The position numbers and the translations under genes were made by a program. 64,000 nucleotides of DNA, from assembly GCA_965223155.1 (NCBI GenBank), contig CBDCVR010000015.1, positions 1,245,892 through 1,309,891 on the forward strand. The letters run 5' to 3'. Origin of the DNA: Candidatus Multivoradales bacterium (GTDB taxonomy: Bacteria > Acidobacteriota > Thermoanaerobaculia > Multivoradales > JAHEKO01). The notes under the pieces were generated by a model that was given only the letters and a program-made list of their open reading frames with translations, searched no databases and was not told where the DNA came from. This document shows positions 46,957 to 64,000 of the stretch, in pieces. The number at the start of each line of letters is the position of its first letter. Positions within the stretch are counted from its first letter, which is position 1.

Positions 46957-47032
46957 GGCGCGTTCGTCTAGGGGTCTAGGACGCCGGCCTCTCACGCCGG
47001 TAACACGGGTTCGAATCCCGTACGCGCTACCA
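46957..47032 (+). tRNA. tRNA-Glu(CTC), island attachment site
   Basis: Acceptor GGCGCGT/ACGCGCT, anticodon arm CCGGC-CTCTCAC-GCCGG, TTCGAAT, CCA. Confidence 0.95.
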
Positions 47033-48506
47033 CCTTTTCCAGCTCGATCTCCGGCCGGTCCAAGTCACTGAAGAACAGGCAGGTTACCGGGGTTCGAAAC
47101 GCCTCGTTGGACCAAACGAGGCCCTCGGGGAACAGGACCTTCTGCATCCGCCGGCGAAGCTCGAGCGGGAACTCCTCCCACAGGCGGCGGGCGTTCAAGA
47201 CGACGTACTCGGCGAACTCGAGGACGGCCTCAACGTCGAGCGAATCAAGAGCGTTGTCGTGGTGCTCGACGCGGACCAGGGTCAGGTCCTGGCCGATCCG
47301 CGCGAGCTCGCTGCGGTAAGTGTCCTGGTCGATCGCCTGCTCGTAGACGTAGGCCTCGACCAGGCGCTTCTTCTGCTCCTCGAGCCGCGCCAGCTCCTTC
47401 TCTAGCAGCGGGCGCATCTCGTCGAGCTCCTCTTTCCGCCGACGCCAGACCAGGAGCACGGTCTCCTTGAGCGCCTGCAGGTTCTTCTTCGAGGGCTTGA
47501 GCCGGTCGAGCAGCTCGAGGAAGCGCTCCTCGAGGGCCTCCTTCCGGAGGCTCGTGGTGCGGCAGCGGTGGCAGTGGTAGTAGGCGTACCGTTTGCCCGT
47601 CTTGGAGCGGGCCCAGGAGCCGGTCAGCGGGTTGTCGCAGGACCCGCAGCGGACGAAGCGCCGCAGGGGGAAGTCGGGGTTGTTGCGGAAGCGCTGCTCG
47701 CCAGTCCTCGCTGCCTTCCTCATCGCCAGCTGCGCCCGGTGGAAGGTGTGCTCGTCGACGATCGGCTCGAAGTCGCCCTGGACGTCGATGCCCCACTTGT
47801 CGTTCCGGATCCGACCGGCGTAGAGCGGGTGCTTGAGCATCTGCCCGAAGCTCTGCGGGCTCATCTTGTTGCCGAGCTTCGTCCGCAGTCCCAGGATCGT
47901 CACCTGCTCGAGGACCTCACGCTTCGAGTGAACGCCTTTGGCGTAGAGCTCGAAAGCGCGACGGACCAGGGGCGCGACCTCAGGATCGGGCTCGATGGTC
48001 TTCGAGCCGTCCGGCCGGTGGACGTTCCGATAGCCGAGCGGCGCCGGGAAGGTCCAGCGACCCCGCTTCAGGGCTTCCTTCATGCCCAGGGTCGTCTTCT
48101 CGGCGCGCTGGTCGTTGTCGAACTGTGCGATGGCGGCCAGGACGCCTTCCATGAGCTTCCCCGTGGGCGTCTCGTCGATCGCCTGGGTCACGGCCCGGAG
48201 CGTCATGCCGAGCCTGCCGAGCTGCGCCCGCACCGCGTGGTGGTCGTAGCTGTTCCGGGCGAAGCGGTCGAGCGAGTAGACGACCATCACGTCGACCCGC
48301 CCTAGATTCTCTCGGCAGTAGCTCAGGAGCCGCGTCAGCTCCGTCCGGTCCGCCGACTTCGCAGACTCACCCCGCTCGACGAAGACCCGATCCACCGTCC
48401 ACCCCTGCGCCTTGCAGAAGCGCACGCACTCCTTGCGCTGCGCCGGCAGACTCAGGTTCTTCGCCTGCTGCTGCGTGCTGACTCGGCAGTAGATGACGGC
48501 GCGCAT
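46992..48506 (-). CDS. Large serine recombinase (integrase)
   Basis: Catalytic YCRVST, LDRFARN, recombinase domain PLGY, Zn ribbon CGSC...CHRC, coiled coil. Confidence 0.95.
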   Translation of the reverse strand: MRAVIYCRVSTQQQAKNLSLPAQRKECVRFCKAQGWTVDRVFVERGESAKSADRTELTRLLSYCRENLGRVDVMVVYSLDRFARNSYDHHAVRAQLGRLGMTLRAVTQAIDETPTGKLMEGVLAAIAQFDNDQRAEKTTLGMKEALKRGRWTFPAPLGYRNVHRPDGSKTIEPDPEVAPLVRRAFELYAKGVHSKREVLEQVTILGLRTKLGNKMSPQSFGQMLKHPLYAGRIRNDKWGIDVQGDFEPIVDEHTFHRAQLAMRKAARTGEQRFRNNPDFPLRRFVRCGSCDNPLTGSWARSKTGKRYAYYHCHRCRTTSLRKEALEERFLELLDRLKPSKKNLQALKETVLLVWRRRKEELDEMRPLLEKELARLEEQKKRLVEAYVYEQAIDQDTYRSELARIGQDLTLVRVEHHDNALDSLDVEAVLEFAEYVVLNARRLWEEFPLELRRRMQKVLFPEGLVWSNEAFRTPVTCLFFSDLDRPEIELEKVVARTGFEPVLPA

Positions 48507-48706
48507 CAGTCGGCCTCGACGTCCTCCTCGCTCAAGCTTGGCTCGGCGATTTCAGAAGCGCCGCCGAGTCTAACCGAGGCTGCCTCGACGATGATCTCCG
48601 CCAACTCGTGCATCTCCCGTCGCAGCGTCTCGAGCTCCGCCTCGCTCAGCCCGCAGTCGGGCCCGAAGATTTCCCGGAGGCGTTCCATCGGCAGCATGTT
48701 TCCCAC
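48506..48706 (-). CDS. Small protein translationally coupled to the recombinase
   Basis: 66 aa, TGATG overlap with the integrase start, GGAG SD upstream. Confidence 0.65.
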   Translation of the reverse strand: MGNMLPMERLREIFGPDCGLSEAELETLRREMHELAEIIVEAASVRLGGASEIAEPSLSEEDVEAD

Positions 48707-48806
48707 GCGTGTAATACTCCTACACGCATAGGAGACAAGTCAAGTGGTCCGGCGACGCTGGCTTCTAACTGGGTGAAGTCCTACAATCGTCGGAACAGGC
48801 TGAAAC

Positions 48807-49160
48807 ATGGCGAGTCGATTGCGCAAGACCGTACCGAAGGAACGTCTCTCCCCCTCCGAGTGGGAGATCATGCGGATCTGCTGGCGGCTGGGCCGTTGCA
48901 CGGTGCGCGATGTACTGGCCGAGGACCAGAGGACTCGCAAACGGGACTACCGAACGATTCTCACCTTCATGACCCGCATGGCAAGGAAGGGCTGGCTCCG
49001 AGGCCACAAGGTGGGCAACACGAACCACTACTCACCAGCAGTGGCGCAGGACAAGGCAGTTCTTCGAGAGATCGAGCTCTTCCTTGACGCGGTGATCGGG
49101 CGTCAGCCGGAGAACTTCGAGCTCCTCCGGAGAGCCATAGGCGCCTCGCGGCGGTCCTAG
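48807..49160 (+). CDS. BlaI/MecI/CopY family transcriptional regulator
   Basis: LSPSEWEIMRICW, TVRDV, YRTILTFMTRMARKGWL and YSPAV. Confidence 0.88.
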   Translation: MASRLRKTVPKERLSPSEWEIMRICWRLGRCTVRDVLAEDQRTRKRDYRTILTFMTRMARKGWLRGHKVGNTNHYSPAVAQDKAVLREIELFLDAVIGRQPENFELLRRAIGASRRS

Positions 49161-49213
49161 ATCTCAGCGAGCACGGCGGTGCTGGCCTGGCCATGCACCA
49201 TTCAGTCCGCAGC

Positions 49214-49242
49214 TTGACATCGAATGTTCGATTTACTAACAT
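49214..49242 (+). promoter_or_regulatory. sigma70 promoter of defence operon with palindromic operator
   Basis: TTGACA-17 nt-TAACAT; ATCGAA-tg-TTCGAT at 49219-49232 in the spacer. Confidence 0.7.
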
Positions 49243-49300
49243 AGTCATGTGCCGGGCGGATTGTCCGTCCGACAGCAGACCCAATGAGGAGGTGCTGAGA

Positions 49301-50557
49301 ATGCCGGTCACGCCCAAAGAGCTCAGTCGACGGATTCGAACCGCGCGGGAAGCATGTGGGCTGACGCAGGAGCAGGTGGCTCAGGATCTCGGGGTGTCAA
49401 GGTCGGCTGTAGCCCAGATCGAAAGAGGAAAGCGCTCGGTCTCCAGCCTTGAGCTCGACCGGTTTGCTCACCTGTTTGGCCGCGACATTCGTGATTTCGT
49501 AGCGGACTCATTCGACGAGACCGACTCTCTCGCAGCTCTGTTCCGCGCACAGCCGGCGGTTCTTGAGGAGCCATCCGTGGCGGATGCACTTCGAGACTGC
49601 GTAGCGATAGGAAGAGAGATCAGCAACCTAGAGGAGCTGCTCGGAATCGAACGATCAGCTGGAGTGGTCGCCAGTTACCAGCTGCGAGCCCCGAGCACTC
49701 GCTGGGAGGCGATTCGACAAGGTGAGGTACTGGCCAAGGAGGAGCGTCGGCGTCTAGGCCTAGGCGCTACTGCTCTGCCGGACCTTGCCGAGCTCCTCGA
49801 AACGGAAGGCGTACGCACCGGGGTCGTCGATCTTCCGGACGACGTGTCGGGCTTGACGCTCAACGACAAAGAACATGGCCTCTTCGTGATTGCGAACCGC
49901 TCGCATCACGTTCTTCGCCGGCGTTTCTCCTTTGCACATGAGTACGCGCATGTGCTCGCCGATCGAGACCGTTTCGGACTCATCAGCCGCTCCTCGGAGC
50001 GCAGCAACCTGATTGAAGTGCGCGCCAACGCTTTCGGCGCTTGCTTTCTCATGCCTGAAGAGGGCGTGAAGGAGTTTCTGATCAGCCTCGGGAAGGGGAA
50101 GCCGAGTCGCCCATCGTCGGAGGTCTTTGACGAAGCGGATAGCGTCAAGGTTGAAGGGCGAATGGCGCCTGGTAGCCAAGCAGTGCAGCTCTACGATGTT
50201 GTCCAGCTCGCCGCCCACTTCGGTGTGAGTCGCATCGCGGCGCTATACAGGCTTCGAAACCTGAACCTAATCAACGAAGCCGAGTTCGATGATCTGCGGA
50301 CCTTAGATGACGCTGGCCGAGGGCGACAGCTCTCCCAGGCACTTGGTCTGCGAGAACCCGATCACGAGGAGGCACGGAATTGGTTCCGGCATCGTTTCCT
50401 GGGCCTTGCACTCGAGGCTTTCCGCCGTGAGGAGATATCGCGCGGGAAGCTGGAGGAGCTCGTCTTGGTGCTTGGTGTATCAAGAGAAAAGCTCGAGGAA
50501 CTCCTCGAAGAAGCTGGCCTTGTCGAGCGGAGCGCCGAGGGAGTTCCGGAGCGATGA
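49301..50557 (+). CDS. XRE HTH fused to ImmA/IrrE metallo-endopeptidase
   Basis: HTH GLTQEQVAQDLGVSRSAVAQIERG; RRRFSFAHEYAH and EVRANAF; GAGGAGG RBS. Confidence 0.93.
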   Translation: MPVTPKELSRRIRTAREACGLTQEQVAQDLGVSRSAVAQIERGKRSVSSLELDRFAHLFGRDIRDFVADSFDETDSLAALFRAQPAVLEEPSVADALRDCVAIGREISNLEELLGIERSAGVVASYQLRAPSTRWEAIRQGEVLAKEERRRLGLGATALPDLAELLETEGVRTGVVDLPDDVSGLTLNDKEHGLFVIANRSHHVLRRRFSFAHEYAHVLADRDRFGLISRSSERSNLIEVRANAFGACFLMPEEGVKEFLISLGKGKPSRPSSEVFDEADSVKVEGRMAPGSQAVQLYDVVQLAAHFGVSRIAALYRLRNLNLINEAEFDDLRTLDDAGRGRQLSQALGLREPDHEEARNWFRHRFLGLALEAFRREEISRGKLEELVLVLGVSREKLEELLEEAGLVERSAEGVPER

Positions 50558-51087
50558 CCAAGCAGCGAGCCAGGGTCGTCGTGACCGATGCCAATGTGCT
50601 GATAAACCTCGCACACGTTCATCGGCTAGACCTTTGCGCTCGCCTTGCAGGCCTTGAGTTCGTAATTCCAGATCATGTCCGTGACGAGATAACTCGCCGC
50701 GAGCATCGAGATGCCCTGGAAGAGTCAATCGAGGCAGGCGTCTTTAGGGTCGTCAGCATCACCGAGGCGGACGACATTGCGGCGTTCGCAGCGCTCACGA
50801 CCTTTCTGGGCCGCGGCGAAGCGTCGTGCTTGGTCCTTGCTTCGCGAAACGGCTGGCTGGTCGCAAGCGACGAAAGGGGCAGGTTTCGTCGCGAAGCGGG
50901 CGCCCGTATTGGGCAAGACAGGATCCTCGGGACGGTCGAGATCTACGTCCGCGCCCTGCAAGCGGGCCTGCTCTCGCTGGAGGAGGCGGATGTCGACAAG
51001 GCGGTGTTGGAAACACGACGGTTCCGAATGCCATTCGAATCGTTCCACGATATTCCTGTAGACGTTGTGCCAAAGGCTTCGCGATGA
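50554..51087 (+). CDS. PIN domain nuclease (DUF3368-like)
   Basis: VVTDANVLI, LGRGEASCLVLA and VASDE acidic triad; ATGA overlap. Confidence 0.85.
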   Translation: MTKQRARVVVTDANVLINLAHVHRLDLCARLAGLEFVIPDHVRDEITRREHRDALEESIEAGVFRVVSITEADDIAAFAALTTFLGRGEASCLVLASRNGWLVASDERGRFRREAGARIGQDRILGTVEIYVRALQAGLLSLEEADVDKAVLETRRFRMPFESFHDIPVDVVPKASR

Positions 51088-52253
51088 AGACGGGGGATCG
51101 AGTGTCGCTCTACAAGCCTAGGGGAAGGCAAGTGCCTGCGAAGACGAGGTTGTTCCTCTTTACGCAGGCCGGAGGCCGCTGCGAGTTCGACGGCTGCAAC
51201 CGCTACCTTCTCGAACATCCTCTTACGAGGACCGTCGGCGTCTTTGCACAAATGGCGCATATCTTCGCTTTCAGCGACCGCGGCCCTCGTGCTGTGCCGT
51301 CGGGGTCAACGGCAGAAAAGCACGCCCTTGCGAACCTCATTCTTCTCTGCCCAGAGTGCCACAAGCTCGTAGACGATGACCCTGAAACCTACAGTGCCTC
51401 GGTACTTCGAAAACATAAGAAGGCGCACGAAGATCGAATCTTCATACTCACGGATACCAAGCCAGACCGCCAGACGGTCGCCTTCGTTCTACGGGCGAGA
51501 ATTGCAGACCAGAGTGTTGCTATCTCTCGTGCTGACATGGAGGCAGCTGTCGCACCGCGCTACCTTGGCAGAGACGTAGTCGAGTGCAACTTGACGGCGC
51601 TGCGTGATCAAGTTGGATGCGACTACTGGCAGGTTTCGCAAGACGCAATTCAGAGAGCCGCTGCGGGGCTGTACACAGGCACATTCGACGGAGGGCCGGC
51701 GCGCCACGTATCTGTATTTGCACTCGCGCCGATACCGCTCCTGGTGTTTCTTGGAACTCAGCTTAGCAGCAAGGTTCCCACCTCGATGTTCCAACGGCAC
51801 CGCGATTCGGAGGATTGGAAATGGAAAACGCGTGGGGAGGCCGTTTCATTTCAGATGCGACAGCTGAGAAAGGGGACACAGACCGACCGACTTGCACTTC
51901 TACTCTCATTAAGTGGTCCAATCGAGGCGACTGATCTCCCCGCGGAGATTGACGCCCGGTACACCATCACAGAGATCGCACCGGCGAGTCAGCGGCCAAG
52001 CCCAAATGTGCTTCGCTTGGAAGCTACGTTTCACGCGTTTCGTACTGAGTTCATGGCTACCGTTCGGCAGCTTGTCGCGCGGCATCAGGGGCTCAGAGCG
52101 ATCGACCTGTTTCCGGCTGTTCCTGCGCCTGTTGCTACCGCAGTAGGGCGAGACCTGCTCCCCAAGCGCGACCCTTCTCTTCGGGTCTACGACTACAACA
52201 AGCGAGCTGGCGGCTTCTCGCTGGCCCTGGAGGTGAATCAGAATGAAACCTGA
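51084..52253 (+). CDS. cap5: CBASS HNH-SAVED effector (Cap5-like)
   Basis: AGGRCEFDGC, AHIFAFSDRGPR and NLILLCPECHKLVD (HNH); SAVED motifs VFALAPIPLLVFLG and LFPAVPAPVATAVG. Confidence 0.9.
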   Translation: MKTGDRVSLYKPRGRQVPAKTRLFLFTQAGGRCEFDGCNRYLLEHPLTRTVGVFAQMAHIFAFSDRGPRAVPSGSTAEKHALANLILLCPECHKLVDDDPETYSASVLRKHKKAHEDRIFILTDTKPDRQTVAFVLRARIADQSVAISRADMEAAVAPRYLGRDVVECNLTALRDQVGCDYWQVSQDAIQRAAAGLYTGTFDGGPARHVSVFALAPIPLLVFLGTQLSSKVPTSMFQRHRDSEDWKWKTRGEAVSFQMRQLRKGTQTDRLALLLSLSGPIEATDLPAEIDARYTITEIAPASQRPSPNVLRLEATFHAFRTEFMATVRQLVARHQGLRAIDLFPAVPAPVATAVGRDLLPKRDPSLRVYDYNKRAGGFSLALEVNQNET

Positions 52254-53873: not shown

Positions 53874-53915
53874 GCGTTGCGATACGATCGCGGGCACCAA
53901 CACCGAATAAGAACG

Positions 53916-54656
53916 ATGATGCAGCGTCTTCTCGTAAGTGTCCGCGGCCCGAACGAAGCAATTGCGGCTGCCGAAGGCGCCGCACACATTGCGGACGTCG
54001 AGTTTCCGGCATCTGCTTTGGGCACGCCGTACCCTTTGAACATCCGAGCCGTACGCTCGGCTCTGGATGAAAACGGCCTCAAGCACGTCCGTATCTCGAC
54101 GAACATCGGCGAAGAGCAACCGGTACGGAGTACGGCTTGCCAGGCTGCCCTTGGCGTGGCGGTCGCAGGGGCCGATTACGTCAAGTGCGGCCTGGCTGGG
54201 CTCCCTCTCTCGTCTGCTGTGTATCTCGGCCGGAATCTTGTGCGCACCGTTAGAGAGTGGTTCCCTGAGAAGAAGGTCTACCCCGCGGTATTCGCCGACG
54301 ATGATCTGACGAAGCTCTTCGACCCGTTGGTAGATGGTCCCAAACTTTGCCGGGAGATCAATTCCGACGGGCTCCTGATCGACACCTTCAACAAGGACCT
54401 GGGCAAGGGACTGTCCGGCTGCTACACATCTGATCAACTTCATGAGTTCGTCGAGAAGATTCACAGGCTTGGCAAGGAGGCGTGGCTCGCAGGCAGTATT
54501 CGAGAGAAGCAGCTTCCAGGTCTGTGGCAAACGGGGGTTGACGTGATTTGTGTTCGTGGCGCCGCATGCACGGTTGATCCCGACCAGCCACGCTTTGGGG
54601 ACGTCTCTACTGAGATCGTGACCGCGCTCGTTGGCACCCTGCCCGGAAGCACCTGA
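53916..54656 (+). CDS. MfnB-like ((5-formylfuran-3-yl)methyl phosphate synthase / DUF556) TIM-barrel protein
   Basis: LLVSVRGPNEA, GADYVKCGL, LIDTFNKD, LAGSI and DVICVRGAAC match the family pattern; DVKNP appears as DVEFP. Confidence 0.8.
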   Translation: MMQRLLVSVRGPNEAIAAAEGAAHIADVEFPASALGTPYPLNIRAVRSALDENGLKHVRISTNIGEEQPVRSTACQAALGVAVAGADYVKCGLAGLPLSSAVYLGRNLVRTVREWFPEKKVYPAVFADDDLTKLFDPLVDGPKLCREINSDGLLIDTFNKDLGKGLSGCYTSDQLHEFVEKIHRLGKEAWLAGSIREKQLPGLWQTGVDVICVRGAACTVDPDQPRFGDVSTEIVTALVGTLPGST

Positions 54657-56230: not shown

Positions 56231-56680
56231 AGGCGGCGTATCCTGAATCGTTCGATTTCCAAGCGTTCGATTCAAACCCTTCAGAGAAGGAGGATACGCC
56301 GTGAGCAAGAGTAACGTAGTTTCGATTGATCGATCAGAGAGCCGCGAGGACGCCTTGACCGAAGTGCTTCGCCGAGGCTCTCGGCGCCTGCTTCGCGAAG
56401 CGATCGAAGCCGAGGTCGAGAGTTTCCTGGCCGAGTACCGCGGCGAGGTCACCGAGGACGGTCGTCGGCGTATGGTGCGCAATGGCTATCTGCGAGAGCG
56501 CGAGATCCAGACGGGGATCGGCGGTGTGGCTGTGAAGGTGCCTCGAGTCCGCGATCGTTCGGGCTCGCTTCAGTTTCGCTCGAAGATAGCGCCGCCGTAT
56601 CTCAGGCGAGCCAAGAGCGTCGAGGAGCTGCTGCCGTGGCTCTATCTGCGCGGCATCTCCACCGGAGATTTCTCCGATGC
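56195..56680 (+). mobile_element. Truncated IS256-family element (left end and 5' part of transposase from 56301)
   Basis: End GAGCTATGGTCGAAAGTTGTGT; ORF motifs AIEAEV, RNGY, VPRVRDR and LYLRGISTGDF, then an abrupt break. Confidence 0.88.
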
Positions 56681-56986
56681 CCCCCGGGGGAGGTGCCCCC
56701 GGGGGAGGTGCCGCACGATTCCGGGGCGGGTACATCACCTGCTGGGCGGAGGGGCGCAGGCCCGGTTAGCCTGGGTCTAGGTACTCAATCCGGCGCTTGT
56801 TTCTCGAGGGCCTTCTCGATTCGTCGACACCAGTCTTCCGAGTTACGGCTCGGAAGGTCGGCCTGATCTCGGATCCCGAGCTTGAATTCGACGACAGACT
56901 TCCATTCTTCCGAGCCGAGATCAGGTCCGTGGCCCATGCCATCTCCGGCCGCCGCAAGGGTGGCCGCAAGGGTGCCACTCGATTGC
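56681..56986 (+). repeat. Two direct copies of motif GGTGCC(A/G)C(A/T)CGATT, each preceded by a tandem duplication
   Basis: cccccgggggaggtg x2 then ccgcacgatt; gccgcaagggtg x2 then ccactcgatt. Confidence 0.75.
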
Positions 56987-57196
56987 AGGCGTAGCTCCGA
57001 CTTGAGTGAAGGCCTTGGGTTGTAGGCCGGTCGCGCCCTTGGAGTGAGGACTCGAAGGGGAGTTGTCTCGTCTCTCCCTCCCCATCCGCCGGCTTCCGGT
57101 ACAGTCACGCGGTGCGGTTGGAGGAGTTCCGTTGCGTGTTTCGGCGCGGGCGAGGGTGGCCTCAGGAGTCGCTTGCGCTCGAGCTGGGTCCCGCCA

Positions 57197-58234
57197 ATGG
57201 CTGAGCCGACGATGGCTGAACCGACGGTCGGCGCCGGAATTGCCAGGGCGCTGGTCGAGATGGCGGTGGCACGCGGCGCGGAGCGCAAGAGGCTCTTAGC
57301 ACACGCCGGGGTCGCGGCCTCGGATCTGGAGGATCAGGACGCCCGGCTGCCGCTGGTGCGGTACCTGGCCTTGCTCGAGACAGCGCGGGACCTATGCGCC
57401 GAGCCTGCCCTGGCCCTCGAGTTTGGAGCGACCGTGAGTCTGGCCGAGATGTCGATTGTGGCTCTGGTTTGTGAGACCTGCGCCAACGCAGGCCAGGCGC
57501 TCGATGAGCTCAACCGTTACTCGCGGCTGATGATCGATGACGGGGGCCGCGGGCCGGTGAACCGGCTCGAGATGCGCCGAGGCGACGACGGTACCTGGAT
57601 CGAGCTCACCTGCCACCCCTCGGTGGATCATCCTCTCCTGACCGAGACCAGCTTCGCCCGGATGGCGGGAGGGTTCGCCCGGGTCGTGGGCCGCCCGCTT
57701 GCCCGTGAGGTGCGAGTGACCCACGGCGATCCGGGATACGGGGACGCCTACGAGCGGATCTTTCAGGCCGCGGTTGTCTTTGGGAGCGACCGCAACGCAA
57801 TGCGGGTGGACGAGGATTTCTTGGCCTTCGATCTGCCTGGTTCGAACCGGTACGTTTTCGGCATCCTGAGCGATCGGGCGCAGGCACTGCTCGAAGAGCT
57901 CGAGAGCTTGCGCACGGTGCGCGGCCGGGTCGAGCGTTCGCTGATGCCAATTCTCCATACCGGCGAGTTGGGCATCGAAAGGATCGCCGAGCGCTTGGGC
58001 ATGAGCCGGCAGACGCTCTACCGTCGGCTGCGGGCCGAAGGTTTAACCTACAAGTCGGTGCTGGACGAACTCCGGCGGGAGATGGCGCTCCACTATCTCG
58101 ACGGTGGGAAGGTATCGGTCAACGAGGTCGCCTATCTCGTGGGCTACTCCGAGCCCAGTGCCTTCTCGCGCGCTTTCAGGCGGTGGACCGGGAGGGCCCC
58201 AAGCCGCGCGCCAGAAGCCAGAGACCGAAGGTGA
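57197..58234 (+). CDS. AraC family transcriptional regulator
   Basis: MSRQTLYRRL and EVAYLVGYSEPSAFSRAFRRWTG; 15-bp duplication at the start (MAEPT x2). Confidence 0.92.
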   Translation: MAEPTMAEPTVGAGIARALVEMAVARGAERKRLLAHAGVAASDLEDQDARLPLVRYLALLETARDLCAEPALALEFGATVSLAEMSIVALVCETCANAGQALDELNRYSRLMIDDGGRGPVNRLEMRRGDDGTWIELTCHPSVDHPLLTETSFARMAGGFARVVGRPLAREVRVTHGDPGYGDAYERIFQAAVVFGSDRNAMRVDEDFLAFDLPGSNRYVFGILSDRAQALLEELESLRTVRGRVERSLMPILHTGELGIERIAERLGMSRQTLYRRLRAEGLTYKSVLDELRREMALHYLDGGKVSVNEVAYLVGYSEPSAFSRAFRRWTGRAPSRAPEARDRR

Positions 58235-61036: not shown

Positions 61037-64000
61037 ATGAGAAACAGCGTCTTACGCAAGCTTGTCGCCTTGGGTGTCGTCGCCGTCCTGGGCGCCGTGG
61101 GTTTCGCGGTTGCTCAGGAGGAGACCGGCAACGTCTACGTCGTTGCCACCGACACCGAGGGAGGCAGGCTACCGGGCGTGACGACGACTCTGGACTGCGG
61201 CGCAGGCGCCCAAGTCCAGATCACTGACGGTCAGGGGCAAGCTCGCTTCCTGGCGATCGACCCGGGCAATTGTCAGCTGACGCTCCAACTGGATGGCTTC
61301 GGTACCGTCGAGTACCCGGCCGTCAACGTTCGTGTTGCGCGCAACACCAACGTCGAGGCGACGCTCTCCGCCGCCGTGACGGAGACCATCACGGTCACGT
61401 CCGAGAGTCCTCTTCTCGATGAGAAGAAGATCGGCGCGGGTACGACGATCTCGCAGGTCGAGCTGGAGAAGATCCCGACCGCCCGCGATCCGTGGTCGGT
61501 GCTTTCCCAGACCCCGGGCGTCATGGTCGATCGCATCAACGTCGGCGGCAACGAAAGTGGCCAGCAGTCGAGCTTCACCGGCCCGGGCGTGTCGGATGAC
61601 GAGAACGCCTTCCTCGTGGATGGCGTCGAGATCACCGACATGGCGGCCGTTGGCTCGTCCGCTACCTACTACGACTTCGACCAGTTCACCGAGATGCAGT
61701 TCTCGACGGGTGGCACCGACGTCACCAAGTCGGGAGCCGGCGTTTCGGTCAACCTGGTGACGAAGCGTGGCACCAACGAGTTCCGCGGTTCGGCCCGCAT
61801 CCTGCGCACCGACTCGAACGCGTTCGACGTCTTCACCCAGACGATCAACGTGCTGCATTCCGGCAACGCGGACCTGGCCCACAACCAGTCGGGCTTCGTC
61901 GGCAACAGCATTCGCCAGATCACGGAATACGGCCTCGAGGCCGGTGGTCCGGTGATGCGCGACAAGCTCTGGTTCTGGGGCTCGTTTGGCAACAACGACA
62001 TCCGCAACCGCACCGGCGGCACGACGCTGGCCGACGTCCAGAGCGATGACACCGTGCTCGAGAACACCGCGTTCAAGTTCAACGCGTCGCTTTCGGGCTC
62101 GAACTCGGCTCAGGGTTCGTGGAACAACGGTGACAAGCAGAAGTTCGGCCGGAACGCCAGCCCGACCCGCCCCCAGGCCACGGCCTGGAACCAGCGTGGT
62201 CCCTCGGCGGTCATCAAGTTTGAGGACACCCACGTCTTCAACTCGAACTTCTTCCTCGGTGGCACCTGGGCGAAGGTGGACGGCGGCTTCGGCCTGACCT
62301 GCATCGCCTGCGCCGGCGCCGGCAGCCTCGAGGCCACGCCCGAGACTTCCTGGACCGCCGATGGTGTCTGGCAGAACAGCTTCCTTTCGGGGAACTCGAG
62401 CCGTCCGTCGGAAGAGATCAAGGTTGACGGTAACTACTTCTTCAACACCGGTTCGACCAACCACGAGATCAAGTTCGGCGCTCGCGAGCGCAACTTCGAG
62501 ACCGTGAGTAACTTCAACTGGGCCGGCCGCGACATCTTCACGGTCGACTTGGGCCTGTTCGGCGTTCCGGGTAACACCGAGTACGTGGTCGCCCACCGTG
62601 GCGCGACGCCTCTGATCTCGCAGGACTACACGTCCTTCTGGGCTCAGGACACGATCAGCGCCGGTGACTGGACGGTCAACGTCGGTTTCCGTTGGGATCA
62701 GCAGGAGGGCTTCAACGAGACCTTCTCGATTCCGGCGAACCCCGCGTTCCCGGATTTGCTTCCGGCTCTGTCGATCAACGGCATCGATCCCGGTTTCGAC
62801 TGGGACAACATCTCACCGCGTATCGGCGTGACCTACGCTCTGGGTGAGGAGAACAAGACTCTCCTCCGGGCGAGCTTCGCTCAGTTCCCCGAGCAGCTCC
62901 AGACCGACGACATCCAGCAGGTCAACCCGCTGGGCGACGCCTACGCCTACCTGATCTATGAGGATGCCAATGGCGACCTCGGTTACCAGGAGGGTGAAAC
63001 CATCCTCGGTCTCGACGGTGCCACCAACTTCGATCCGTCGAACCCTGGTTCCACGGTTAGCCCGAACCGGGTTGATCCGAACCTGGAGGCTCCGCTGACG
63101 GACGAGATCCTGTTGTCGGTCGAACACGCGTTCCTGCCCGAGTTCGTGGCCGGGTTCAGCTTCACGATGCGCAACACCAGCGATCTGCTGCCGGACGTGG
63201 ATACGGAGGCCTTGCGCGAGATCATCGTCGACCCGGTGACCGGTCAGACCCGCGTCACCACGGCGGCCGATTTCGTGTCGGATGGCTCGGTAAGCGGCAC
63301 GCTGCCCGACGGTTCGACCTACAACCAGCCGGTCTTTGCGATCTTCTGTGGCAGCGCCTGCCGAACGGGCGGGACGTTGCTCGAGAACACCGATCGTGAG
63401 ATCGAGTACCAGGGGTATGGCGTCAACTTCATCAAGCGCCTGTCCAACCGTTGGATGCTTCGTGGCTACTTCAACTACGGCGACGCCGAGTACAATCTGG
63501 GCAGCTCCTACATCGCGAACTACGACCCGAACAACGAAGAGGGTGCGTTCGACGATGCCAACGGTTTGTTTGCGGTCCAGGCTGCCGGTTCCGGTGCCAA
63601 GCAGGACGTGTTCCTCCAGAGCACGTACCAGTGGAACCTGAACGGCATGTACCAGGTCGCTCCCGACCGTCCGTGGGGCTTCAACGTTGCGGCCAATCTC
63701 TTTGGTCGTGAAGGTACCCCGCTGCCGTACTACCACCGGGCTCGCCAGTCCGATGGCATCCGGCGCGACATTCAGGTCACGAGCGAGATCGACTCGTTCC
63801 GTTCGGACGACGTCAACACCGTCGATCTGCGGCTCGAGAAGGAGTTCGCAGCGACCGGGAACGTCGGGTTCACGGTCAGTCTCGACGCGTTCAACCTGCT
63901 CGACGAGAGCTTTGTGTTGCAGCGCCGTCGTCAGACGAATACCGGCAACTTCGACTGGGTCACCGAGACTCTGTCGCCACGGATTTTCCGTCTGGGCGTC
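61037..64000 (+). CDS. Large TonB-dependent receptor (Oar-like, carboxypeptidase-regulatory-like N-domain); runs off the window
   Basis: AAGGAGG RBS, MRNSVLRK signal peptide, ETITVTSESPLLD, IPTARDPW, ending PRIFRLGV; absent from the ORF track because no stop lies in the window. Confidence 0.92.
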   Translation, partial: MRNSVLRKLVALGVVAVLGAVGFAVAQEETGNVYVVATDTEGGRLPGVTTTLDCGAGAQVQITDGQGQARFLAIDPGNCQLTLQLDGFGTVEYPAVNVRVARNTNVEATLSAAVTETITVTSESPLLDEKKIGAGTTISQVELEKIPTARDPWSVLSQTPGVMVDRINVGGNESGQQSSFTGPGVSDDENAFLVDGVEITDMAAVGSSATYYDFDQFTEMQFSTGGTDVTKSGAGVSVNLVTKRGTNEFRGSARILRTDSNAFDVFTQTINVLHSGNADLAHNQSGFVGNSIRQITEYGLEAGGPVMRDKLWFWGSFGNNDIRNRTGGTTLADVQSDDTVLENTAFKFNASLSGSNSAQGSWNNGDKQKFGRNASPTRPQATAWNQRGPSAVIKFEDTHVFNSNFFLGGTWAKVDGGFGLTCIACAGAGSLEATPETSWTADGVWQNSFLSGNSSRPSEEIKVDGNYFFNTGSTNHEIKFGARERNFETVSNFNWAGRDIFTVDLGLFGVPGNTEYVVAHRGATPLISQDYTSFWAQDTISAGDWTVNVGFRWDQQEGFNETFSIPANPAFPDLLPALSINGIDPGFDWDNISPRIGVTYALGEENKTLLRASFAQFPEQLQTDDIQQVNPLGDAYAYLIYEDANGDLGYQEGETILGLDGATNFDPSNPGSTVSPNRVDPNLEAPLTDEILLSVEHAFLPEFVAGFSFTMRNTSDLLPDVDTEALREIIVDPVTGQTRVTTAADFVSDGSVSGTLPDGSTYNQPVFAIFCGSACRTGGTLLENTDREIEYQGYGVNFIKRLSNRWMLRGYFNYGDAEYNLGSSYIANYDPNNEEGAFDDANGLFAVQAAGSGAKQDVFLQSTYQWNLNGMYQVAPDRPWGFNVAANLFGREGTPLPYYHRARQSDGIRRDIQVTSEIDSFRSDDVNTVDLRLEKEFAATGNVGFTVSLDAFNLLDESFVLQRRRQTNTGNFDWVTETLSPRIFRLGV

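Follow-up and report, generated by a model that had tools for sequence, protein, structure and literature searches.

An MfnB-like gene with glutamate at the Schiff-base lysine position on a mobile island of a Candidatus Multivoradales bacterium: a strong candidate defence gene beside, and probably not part of, a CBASS system

What does an enzyme of the methanofuran-pathway type do next to an anti-phage operon, and to which of its neighbours does it belong? The question is raised by a 64,000-nucleotide (nt) stretch of DNA from a Candidatus Multivoradales bacterium (phylum Acidobacteriota; assembly GCA_965223155.1, contig CBDCVR010000015.1, positions 1,245,892 to 1,309,891), referred to below as the window. 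At 53916-54656 on the + strand it carries an open frame for a protein of 246 amino acids (aa) that resembles MfnB and has a glutamate where MfnB has a catalytic lysine. The gene directly follows the genes of a cyclic-oligonucleotide-based anti-phage signalling system (CBASS), and a first-pass annotation had described it as a repurposed sugar-phosphate enzyme or binder inside the CBASS operon. In the analysis presented here the sequence reads as that of an active, i.e. catalytically competent, repurposed MfnB-family sugar-phosphate enzyme of defence islands, and this reading as a whole was given a probability of roughly 0.6. The gene probably has an anti-phage role, either as a module of its own or at the head of an ATPase-nuclease module, with CBASS as a co-resident of the same island.

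The longest open reading frame (ORF) over the gene opens at a TTG codon at 53877, but the probable start is the ATG at 53916 or at 53919, since homologues open with MQRLLVS. The MfnB/DUF556 pattern noticed at first pass was borne out: the Pfam model PF04476 (4HFCP_synth, MfnB) matches the 246-aa protein along its full length (E 2.1e-38; 132.8 bits, the cut-off being 22.4) and phmmer aligns it to MJ1099 of Methanocaldococcus jannaschii (structures 4rc1/4u9p) at E 7.7e-30. In that alignment IIDVKNP of MJ1099 pairs with IADVEFP, so Lys27 of MJ1099 corresponds to Glu29 here. The motifs listed earlier are all present in the translation, namely DVEFP (D27, E29) for DVKNP, YVK (K90), D-T-F-N-K (D156, T157, K160) and LAGS (192-194), and the equivalents of MJ1099 Asp25, Lys85, Asp151 and Lys155 are kept as D27, K90, D156 and K160, invariant or nearly so. 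According to a review (PMC6604932), MfnB cannot do without two lysines and two aspartates; the Schiff base is formed by Lys27, as the first-pass annotation had also stated, and the four residues are conserved in the active site of DERA. The equivalog cut-offs of the NCBIfam MfnB models were missed by a wide margin (NF002573, 131.9 bits against 341; NF002575, 124.3 against 304).

An AlphaFold2 model built from 28 relatives had a mean predicted local distance difference test score of 92. Foldseek placed it on MJ1099 as suggested earlier, the chains of 4rc1/4u9p being the top matches in the Protein Data Bank (PDB) (TM 0.84-0.90, E 6.5e-20, 35% identity). FBA, OMPDC and HPS barrels were also matched, with TM 0.6-0.67 and E near 1e-8. 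The protein thus has PF04476 membership, the TIM barrel, the four residue equivalents and the phosphate-binding loops in common with MJ1099, and differs from it in the glutamate at the Lys27 position, in its sub-equivalog score and in its place in a separate deep clade. It shows no detectable sequence membership in the DERA, HPS or OMPDC barrels, and a Mg-dependent, HPS-like chemistry would be suggested solely by the glutamate. No model of PADLOC 2023 matches the protein.

The substitution is common to a whole group of proteins. A word-index search gave 1176 relatives, and among the 119 listed besides the query (65-73% identical) the pattern D-[VAI]-E-[YFHD]-P was found in 118; in the exception, P0010, an N-terminal extension shifts the motif beyond the 70 residues scanned. 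When representatives at 50% identity were searched exhaustively, 1378 matches came up, from which 89 near-full-length representatives (215-300 aa) were taken and scored together with 8 members of the clade. At positions D27, 29, K90 and D156, 76 rows have D-K-K-D, 14 have D-E-K-D and 7 have another combination. P0170, P0171, P0179 and P0289, which are truncated or aberrant, were left out of the tree, a quick IQ-TREE search on 93 rows, in which 13 rows with glutamate and one with isoleucine share one side of a branch of length 0.93 supported by an SH-like approximate likelihood ratio test (SH-aLRT) value of 99. Position 29 is Glu in 13/13 rows of this E-clade and Lys in 77/77 rows of the K-clade.

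The E-clade has kept S8, E14, D27, K90, D156, T157, K160, G193, S194, R214 and C218 of the K-clade and has its own fixed changes, K29E, E33S, A62T, A63N, P68Q, A123P, L188E, A190W and G212C. A site that stays conserved and yet has acquired clade-specific fixed changes points to altered chemistry and not to decay. A private inactivating mutation, which was considered, is rejected by the D-x-E motif in the 118 listed homologues and by the grouping of the glutamate rows on the well-supported branch; the glutamate is clade-wide. No fused forms of the E-clade were found among longer proteins, the 45 long matches being distant ones (32-46% identity). The E-clade is a distinct, highly conserved and horizontally mobile subfamily.

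Methanofuran synthesis by the window gene is unlikely, since the host genome lacks the enzymes that would depend on it: the assembly (4.0 Mb, 98.66% complete) has neither FTR (PF01913) nor MCH (PF02289). No C1 genes lie near the MfnB-like gene in the window, in line with the first-pass remark, which thereby extends to the genome for FTR and MCH. The genome contains two PF04476 genes, both with DVEFP. Among 301 sampled genomes of the phylum PF04476 occurred in 11, none of them from the same genus, family or order; the other carriers scored mostly 200-250 bits against about 133 here, and by score one genome of the 301 was of the E type. Seven of the higher-scoring loci were fetched as a control from the same phylum. 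Six have D-x-K, and in L064 the called ORF missed the motif. The 39 neighbours of these canonical copies include Fae (3), FTR (2), FTR_C (2), ATP-grasp_3 (4), AA_kinase (3) and Hydantoinase_A (3), as well as Mpt_N, GCHY-1 and HPPK, and no defence family was found among them. The phylogeny proposed at first pass separates D-x-E sequences, which form a clade in defence neighbourhoods, from D-x-K relatives in tetrahydromethanopterin (H4MPT) and methanofuran ones. The window gene, with defence genes around it instead of Fae, FTR and H4MPT genes and a host without methanofuran-dependent enzymes, differs from MJ1099 in this respect too, and a methanofuran role was rejected on the grounds of the missing FTR and MCH and of the different context of canonical copies.

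The neighbourhoods of the E-clade were collected by a pattern scan with one genome per species, which gave 57 loci of 51-68% identity in more than 12 phyla, including Planctomycetota, Ignavibacteriota, Bacteroidota, Omnitrophota, Nitrospirota, Elusimicrobiota, Gemmatimonadota, Actinomycetota, Verrucomicrobiota and Armatimonadota. Neighbouring ORFs were clustered and the clusters named through Pfam, PADLOC, PDB and fold searches; partners were counted within 8 kb of the gene at 52 usable loci, two of them in the genome studied here. A CBASS cyclase was present at 14/52 loci, PtuA with PtuB of the Septu system likewise at 14/52, DUF6119 at 11/52 and proteins like nucleoside 2'-deoxyribosyltransferase (NDT; clusters c17 and c22) at 10/52. 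The neighbour was co-directional upstream at 43/52 loci and downstream at 34/52. In a set of 96 immediate neighbours from 53 public loci, AAA_15/AAA_21 ATPases (10), DUF6119 (9), Nuc_deoxyrib_tr (6), NucC (2) and ResIII (2) recurred, with one each of HamA, GmrSD_N, SduA_C (Shedu), SLFN_AlbA_2, SMODS, DUF3732, Resolvase and Phage_integrase. When ten upstream neighbours from loci lacking all four labelled partner classes were searched against PADLOC, six had matches, comprising PDC-S71 (5e-132), LmuB of Lamassu (2e-132), a ThsB-type TIR (2e-64) and HEC-06/GmrSD (9e-40) and, more weakly, SIR2 and a helicase.

An independent scan of metagenome contigs showed the same pattern. It found no fewer than 288 relatives and the 80 best were retained; 42 of these 80 are at least 6 kb long, and removal at 95% identity or more left 29 loci. 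These 29 had Septu at 12, DUF3326 at 11, NDT-like proteins at 7, a CBASS cyclase at 5, DUF6119 at 4 and no modelled family at 4. The commonest direct upstream neighbour is DUF6119 (about 550 aa), found at L010:6406-8055, L025:8292-10004, L028:8301-10004 and 8 more loci; its stop overlaps the start of the MfnB-like gene by 4 nt in L025 and L028. For DUF6119 there is no PADLOC model and no sequence relative in the PDB, and a literature search including TIGR04141 gave nothing relevant. E-clade relatives were absent from the IMG/VR pattern matches and had no match in INPHARED phages, and the search of PLSDB plasmids gave only distant Streptomyces and Sinorhizobium homologues (28-35% identity). Taken over genomes and metagenomes, the E-clade gene is shown to be a small, horizontally mobile gene of defence islands in many phyla, and a strong candidate defence gene.

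The first-pass placement of the gene inside a CBASS operon, which implies a CBASS component, did not hold across these loci, although in the window the PADLOC Cyclase, SAVED-HNH effector and E2 genes do all adjoin it. In a FastTree phylogeny of these 52 proteins, 11 changes are required for the CBASS label, against a shuffled mean of 12.5 and with 91/500 shuffles as low, whereas the Septu label takes 6 changes, a number reached by 0/500 shuffles. The nearest relatives of the window protein are its paralogue on contig C13 of the same genome (70% identity) and Septu-linked proteins. The paralogue, also with DVEFP, stands in the order PtuA, PtuB, a pyridoxal phosphate (PLP) decarboxylase of the ornithine/diaminopimelate (Orn/DAP) type, DUF3326, MfnB-like, PtuA, PtuB; PADLOC recognised PtuB (2e-45) and a PtuA/GajA-type ATPase in the operons of the paralogue and the nearest relatives, and no CBASS lies beside the paralogue. 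Since Septu is an equally frequent neighbour, other defence genes also occur and CBASS adjacency is scattered over the tree, the MfnB-like gene is not specific to CBASS. The repurposed MfnB-family enzyme in a defence setting stands, and the tie to CBASS is dropped.

A co-directional cassette of MfnB-like, PtuA and PtuB genes, a gene for a decarboxylase of either the AdoMetDC fold or the PLP type, and DUF3326 was found at eight loci in genomes and some ten in metagenomes, its genes often separated by very short gaps. PtuA directly follows the MfnB-like gene at 13/29 metagenome loci, 11 of them with DUF3326. As far as literature searches show, the five-gene cassette is an undescribed Septu variant with polyamine-type enzymes; we know of no described Septu system with MfnB-like, decarboxylase or DUF3326 genes, and none of the three occurs in the PADLOC models. 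Carriers of the five-gene cassette, in at least five phyla, are L004, L005, L009, L013, L017, L027, L074, L076, L081-L083, L099, L107 and others.

No such cassette is present in the window, where the gene downstream encodes an unrelated NTPase that fell in no PtuA cluster. This 520-aa protein had been called NACHT, a name that is approximate because the NACHT model scored 20.8 bits against a cut-off of 26.7; it is a P-loop NTPase (AAA_22, 27.9 bits against 27, 3.3e-6; AAA_16, 26.9 against 32.6) with an N-terminal Mrr_cat match at E 0.008, below the cut-off, and it has no PADLOC match and no sequence relative in the PDB. Of the position given earlier, between E2 and NACHT, the E2 was confirmed. 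The closest relatives of the window protein lead Septu ATPase-nuclease cassettes, and therefore the window gene may pair with the downstream nuclease-like NTPase and not with CBASS; the Mrr-like NTPase would occupy the position of PtuA/PtuB in the relatives' cassettes. On the strength of this ATPase and nuclease pairing the window reads as two adjoining modules. One is a short type II-like CBASS with an HTH-M78 regulator, a PDC-S70-like protein, a Cap5-like HNH-SAVED effector, a CD-NTase and an E2, for which we take 'type II short' to be the fitting term, and the other consists of the MfnB-like gene and the 520-aa NTPase.

The arrangement of the window could also be explained by a CBASS accessory that makes, modifies or degrades a CBASS-related ligand, or supplies the NTPase with one, and works only with the cyclase, E2 and Cap5. 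The gene is co-directional with its neighbours, separated by 45 nt from E2 upstream and by 11 nt from the NTPase downstream, the order HNH-SAVED, cyclase, E2, MfnB-like returns in L018, L031, L032 and L152, and with one or two genes between in L023, L025 and L044, and the frequency of the cyclase near E-clade genes is far over random expectation. Against these stand the absence of a cyclase in reach at 38/52 genome and 24/29 metagenome loci, the unclustered CBASS label, the paralogue that does without CBASS in the same genome and the variable effectors (Cap5-like, NucC) of the CBASS neighbours, which make an accessory role improbable. It is unlikely, too, that the protein is an ordinary biosynthetic enzyme, for instance one performing an aldehyde-forming, polyamine-like step with the decarboxylase and DUF3326, that rides defence islands and has no part in defence. 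Such an enzyme would account for the fully conserved active site, for the NmrA-like reductase next to the gene at 3 loci and for the cassette itself, in which the AdoMetDC-fold or PLP Orn/DAP-type decarboxylase and DUF3326 recur at roughly 14 Septu genome loci (DUF3326 found in 13) and at 11/29 metagenome loci. A precedent is given in a preprint (bioRxiv 10.64898/2026.06.12.731819), where the DUF3326 protein PavB and the decarboxylase-containing PavA are both required for a polyamine intermediate. However, PtuA and PtuB always intervene between the MfnB-like gene and the other two enzymes, which are missing from most loci, and both the sporadic spread (the single E-type genome of the phylum sample) and the identity of 51-68% kept across phyla suit accessory conflict genes better than a pathway.

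Two further explanations concern the chemistry. If the loss of Lys27 had ended catalysis, the barrel could be a pseudoenzyme serving as a sugar-phosphate-binding sensor or scaffold. The essential Schiff-base role of this lysine in MfnB (PMC6604932) favours such a view, as do the retained phosphate-binding motifs AGS and VRG and the crystal of MJ1099 with phosphoribosyl pyrophosphate (PRPP; title of entry 4rc1), from which the pocket can hold a pentose phosphate. A pseudoenzyme is nevertheless hardly probable when D27, K90, D156 and K160 are invariant across the E-clade, the replacement is always glutamate with the co-varying second-shell changes A63N, L188E and A190W, a sign of altered chemistry and not of decay, and the longer proteins show no fusion to effector or sensor domains. 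An active enzyme might instead release a toxic electrophile, elimination and isomerisation half-reactions on triose phosphates giving methylglyoxal-like products for abortive infection gated by the NTPase or by sensor neighbours. The MfnB site catalyses phosphate elimination and isomerisation on glyceraldehyde-3-phosphate before the aldol step (PMC6604932), a carboxylate base at position 29 would be chemically apt, and the variable upstream partners (DUF6119, PDC-S71, TIR, LmuB and others) before a constant 3' enzyme resemble sensor-effector modularity. We consider this a long shot as well: the protein has no regulatory domain, the gene is monocistronic with opposite-strand flanks in L016, L022, L039, L047 and L058, and a constitutive source of methylglyoxal would be costly to the cell.

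For the favoured reading, a repurposed and active enzyme of defence islands, the partner genes offer clues to the substrate. Cluster c17 (162 aa) is like DNPH1/Rcl, 2'-deoxynucleoside 5'-phosphate N-hydrolase (E 3.6e-11); it stands directly upstream of the MfnB-like gene at six loci, and in 4/5 of those scored there is a 4-nt overlap between its stop and the start of the MfnB-like gene. Cluster c25 (about 392 aa) falls outside the Pfam families, and its members in bacteria and some archaea (Thorarchaeota) share 58-91% identity. Its predicted fold combines an archaeal-type adenylate kinase domain with an NDT-like domain (Foldseek 2.5e-8 and 2.7e-4); it is directly upstream at L015:5036-6220, L019:8768-9949 and L055:8805-9989 and at four metagenome loci, with fragments in L012 and L050. 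A third NDT-like family, c22, gave a weak match. No relation of c25 to c17 or c22 was found by hhalign on shallow alignments, and the relation is seen by fold alone. Cluster c11 had no usable ESM Atlas match. DNPH1-type enzymes release deoxyribose-5-phosphate, which is also the substrate of DERA; the product of the DNPH1-like partners would thus be a DERA substrate. With these partners, the two lysines and two aspartates that MfnB shares with DERA (PMC6604932), and the PRPP in the MJ1099 crystal, a pentose-phosphate substrate is plausible and a cyclisation or dehydration free of the Schiff base is conceivable.

It is accordingly proposed, tentatively and with considerable doubt, that the enzyme carries out phosphosugar chemistry without the covalent Lys27, that Glu29 acts as a general base or metal ligand and that a nucleotide-derived sugar phosphate is destroyed or diverted irreversibly; the substrate may be (deoxy)ribose-5-phosphate, because genes like dNMP N-glycosidases recur elsewhere as translationally coupled partners. 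The likeliest mode would be a single-enzyme metabolic defence acting on nucleotide-related small molecules. That the E-clade is a new anti-phage family working on nucleotide-derived sugar phosphates goes further and is unlikely in either of the two forms considered. In one, the enzyme, either jointly with DNPH1-like or kinase-NDT partners or alone on cellular deoxyribose-5-phosphate, would turn pentose phosphate from (possibly phage-modified) dNMPs irreversibly into a furan-type dead-end product; only the cyclisation/dehydration half of MfnB chemistry would be used and not the aldol step, and therefore the Schiff-base lysine would be dispensable. In the other, which concerns the five-gene cassette, Septu would be armed or regulated by a polyamine-like molecule, the joint product of the MfnB-like enzyme, the decarboxylase and DUF3326.

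Several observations weigh against a defence role or against this chemistry. The role in defence is deduced from the neighbourhood alone, and loss of the Schiff-base lysine could equal loss of catalysis. At 17/52 genome loci none of the four labelled partner classes was found, four of the ten additional upstream neighbours had no PADLOC match, and the 96 immediate neighbours include ordinary redox and metabolic genes (peroxidase, AhpC, NmrA). All partner counts may shift by a few, neighbouring ORFs having been called by a crude longest-ORF scheme, and the 80 metagenome loci were chosen by similarity to the query alignment, which biases them to the Septu-linked subclade. The genome studied here has no NDT-like gene (PF05014) and no DUF6119 gene; therefore the link to deoxyribose phosphate fails in this organism unless ordinary metabolism supplies the substrate. 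A scan of the window for promoters and terminators gave no more sites than shuffled sequence.

The window gene is shown to be cargo of a roughly 10-kb serine-recombinase island beside a tRNA-Glu gene (Table 1). The fraction of GC is 0.57-0.61 between 49 and 57 kb, compared with 0.68-0.72 to the left and 0.62-0.67 to the right. A second island of the same genome lies on contig C13 (L003:7818-15305, - strand), and window positions 47026-49042, covering the recombinase, the 66-aa ORF and the BlaI-like repressor, are 88.7% identical over 2021 nt to its left end. A congeneric genome matches the flanks at 42.0-47.0 kb and 61.0-62.0 kb and not the island, but absence of the island there is not proven because the contig ends at the junction. 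In a genome of the same family (L072, G119:C201:9000-28999) a related serine-recombinase module occupies the same chromosomal flank, adjoined by RHS-repeat proteins of 458 and 1698 aa. A search for an att repeat gave just an 11-nt match near 56941-56951, which is uninformative and was discarded; serine integrases need no such repeat. To the right of the island (57044-58234 and 61037-64000) lie ordinary chromosomal genes, among them an AraC-family regulator (QhpR-like, 3e-48) and a TonB-dependent receptor-like outer-membrane protein.

Table 1 Features of the island and its left edge, in window coordinates
Feature	Position	Strand	Evidence and remarks
tRNA-Glu (CTC)	46957..47032	+	ARAGORN; left edge of the low-GC island
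Large serine recombinase, 504 aa, mobility gene of the island	46992..48506	-	Pfam Resolvase 4e-35, Recombinase, Zn_ribbon_recom
66-aa ORF	48506..48706	-	Cluster c110, common to both islands; within the 88.7% block
BlaI/Penicillinase_R-type repressor, 117 aa	48807..49160	+	Pfam PF03965 1.9e-20; cluster c106, kept in the second island
Helix-turn-helix (HTH) + M78 peptidase regulator, 454 aa, like fused CapH/CapP	49193..50557	+	Pfam HTH_3, Peptidase_M78; PADLOC RmrA 1e-26, capP 6e-16, capH 1e-7
PDC-S70-like protein, 177 aa	50554..51087	+	PADLOC PDC-S70 5.7e-13
HNH-SAVED effector (Cap5-like), 475-aa ORF	50826..52253	+	Pfam SAVED 6e-36, HNH_2; PADLOC endonuclease effector 3.7e-132
CD-NTase (CBASS cyclase), 299 aa	52243..53142	+	PADLOC Cyclase 1.3e-64; NCBIfam CBASS_cyclase_a 2e-16
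E2-like CBASS ancillary protein, 241 aa	53148..53873	+	PADLOC E2 9.6e-61
E-clade PF04476/MfnB-like TIM barrel, 246 aa, Glu29 for the Schiff-base Lys	53916..54656	+	Pfam, phmmer, AlphaFold2, Foldseek
Weakly Mrr_cat-like N-terminus + P-loop (AAA_22/STAND-like) NTPase, 520 aa	54668..56230	+	Pfam
Mutator-family transposase fragment, 159 aa, near the right end of the island	56301..56780	+	Pfam Transposase_mut 1e-12, profile positions 18-122 of 379

The 475-aa HNH-SAVED ORF overlaps the PDC-S70-like ORF (50554-52253 together). Its true start is probably near 51117, which would give about 378 aa as elsewhere, because PADLOC aligns it from residue 98. The Cys-rich C-terminus of the CBASS E2, CPCGSRKKIRKCC, was matched by the SEC-C/SWIM metal-binding model TIGR04102 (residues 175-194, E 0.0017).

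Among known defence systems, Septu is close in layout: the C13 copy, like the nearest relatives, stands at the head or side of PtuA/PtuB operons, and the nuclease-like NTPase fusion of the window has the same downstream position, with the difference that this NTPase is not a PtuA homologue. Type IV CBASS carries ancillary genes of metabolic type (QueC/TGT/OGG-like) and so is a precedent for small-molecule- or nucleotide-modifying enzymes in CBASS operons; the CBASS association of the E-clade gene, however, is not specific. Single-enzyme metabolic defences are known in the form of nucleotide depletion by dCTP deaminase and dGTPase and of prokaryotic viperins. These resemble the E-clade in being small stand-alone enzymes in defence islands, whereas their fold and chemistry are unrelated to those predicted for the E-clade. 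A literature search on MfnB, PF04476, UPF0264, DUF556 and 4-HFC-P synthase found nothing that ties the family to phage defence; matches for 'DUF556' were rejected, as they proved to be DUF5565 and the all-alpha Imm49.

If the defence role were confirmed, phage defence would have recruited a cofactor enzyme of methanogen type, in addition to the few metabolic enzymes already known in such a role. The E-clade has spread horizontally over more than a dozen phyla and yet lies outside PADLOC 2023, possibly overlooked because it occurs mostly in uncultured lineages. The analysis also points to two further uncharacterised modules, the Septu variant with a decarboxylase and DUF3326 and the highly conserved family of kinase-NDT fusions. 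For the MfnB family itself, the E-clade is a natural experiment in enzyme evolution, in which one catalytic lysine has become a glutamate while the remaining site has stayed frozen.

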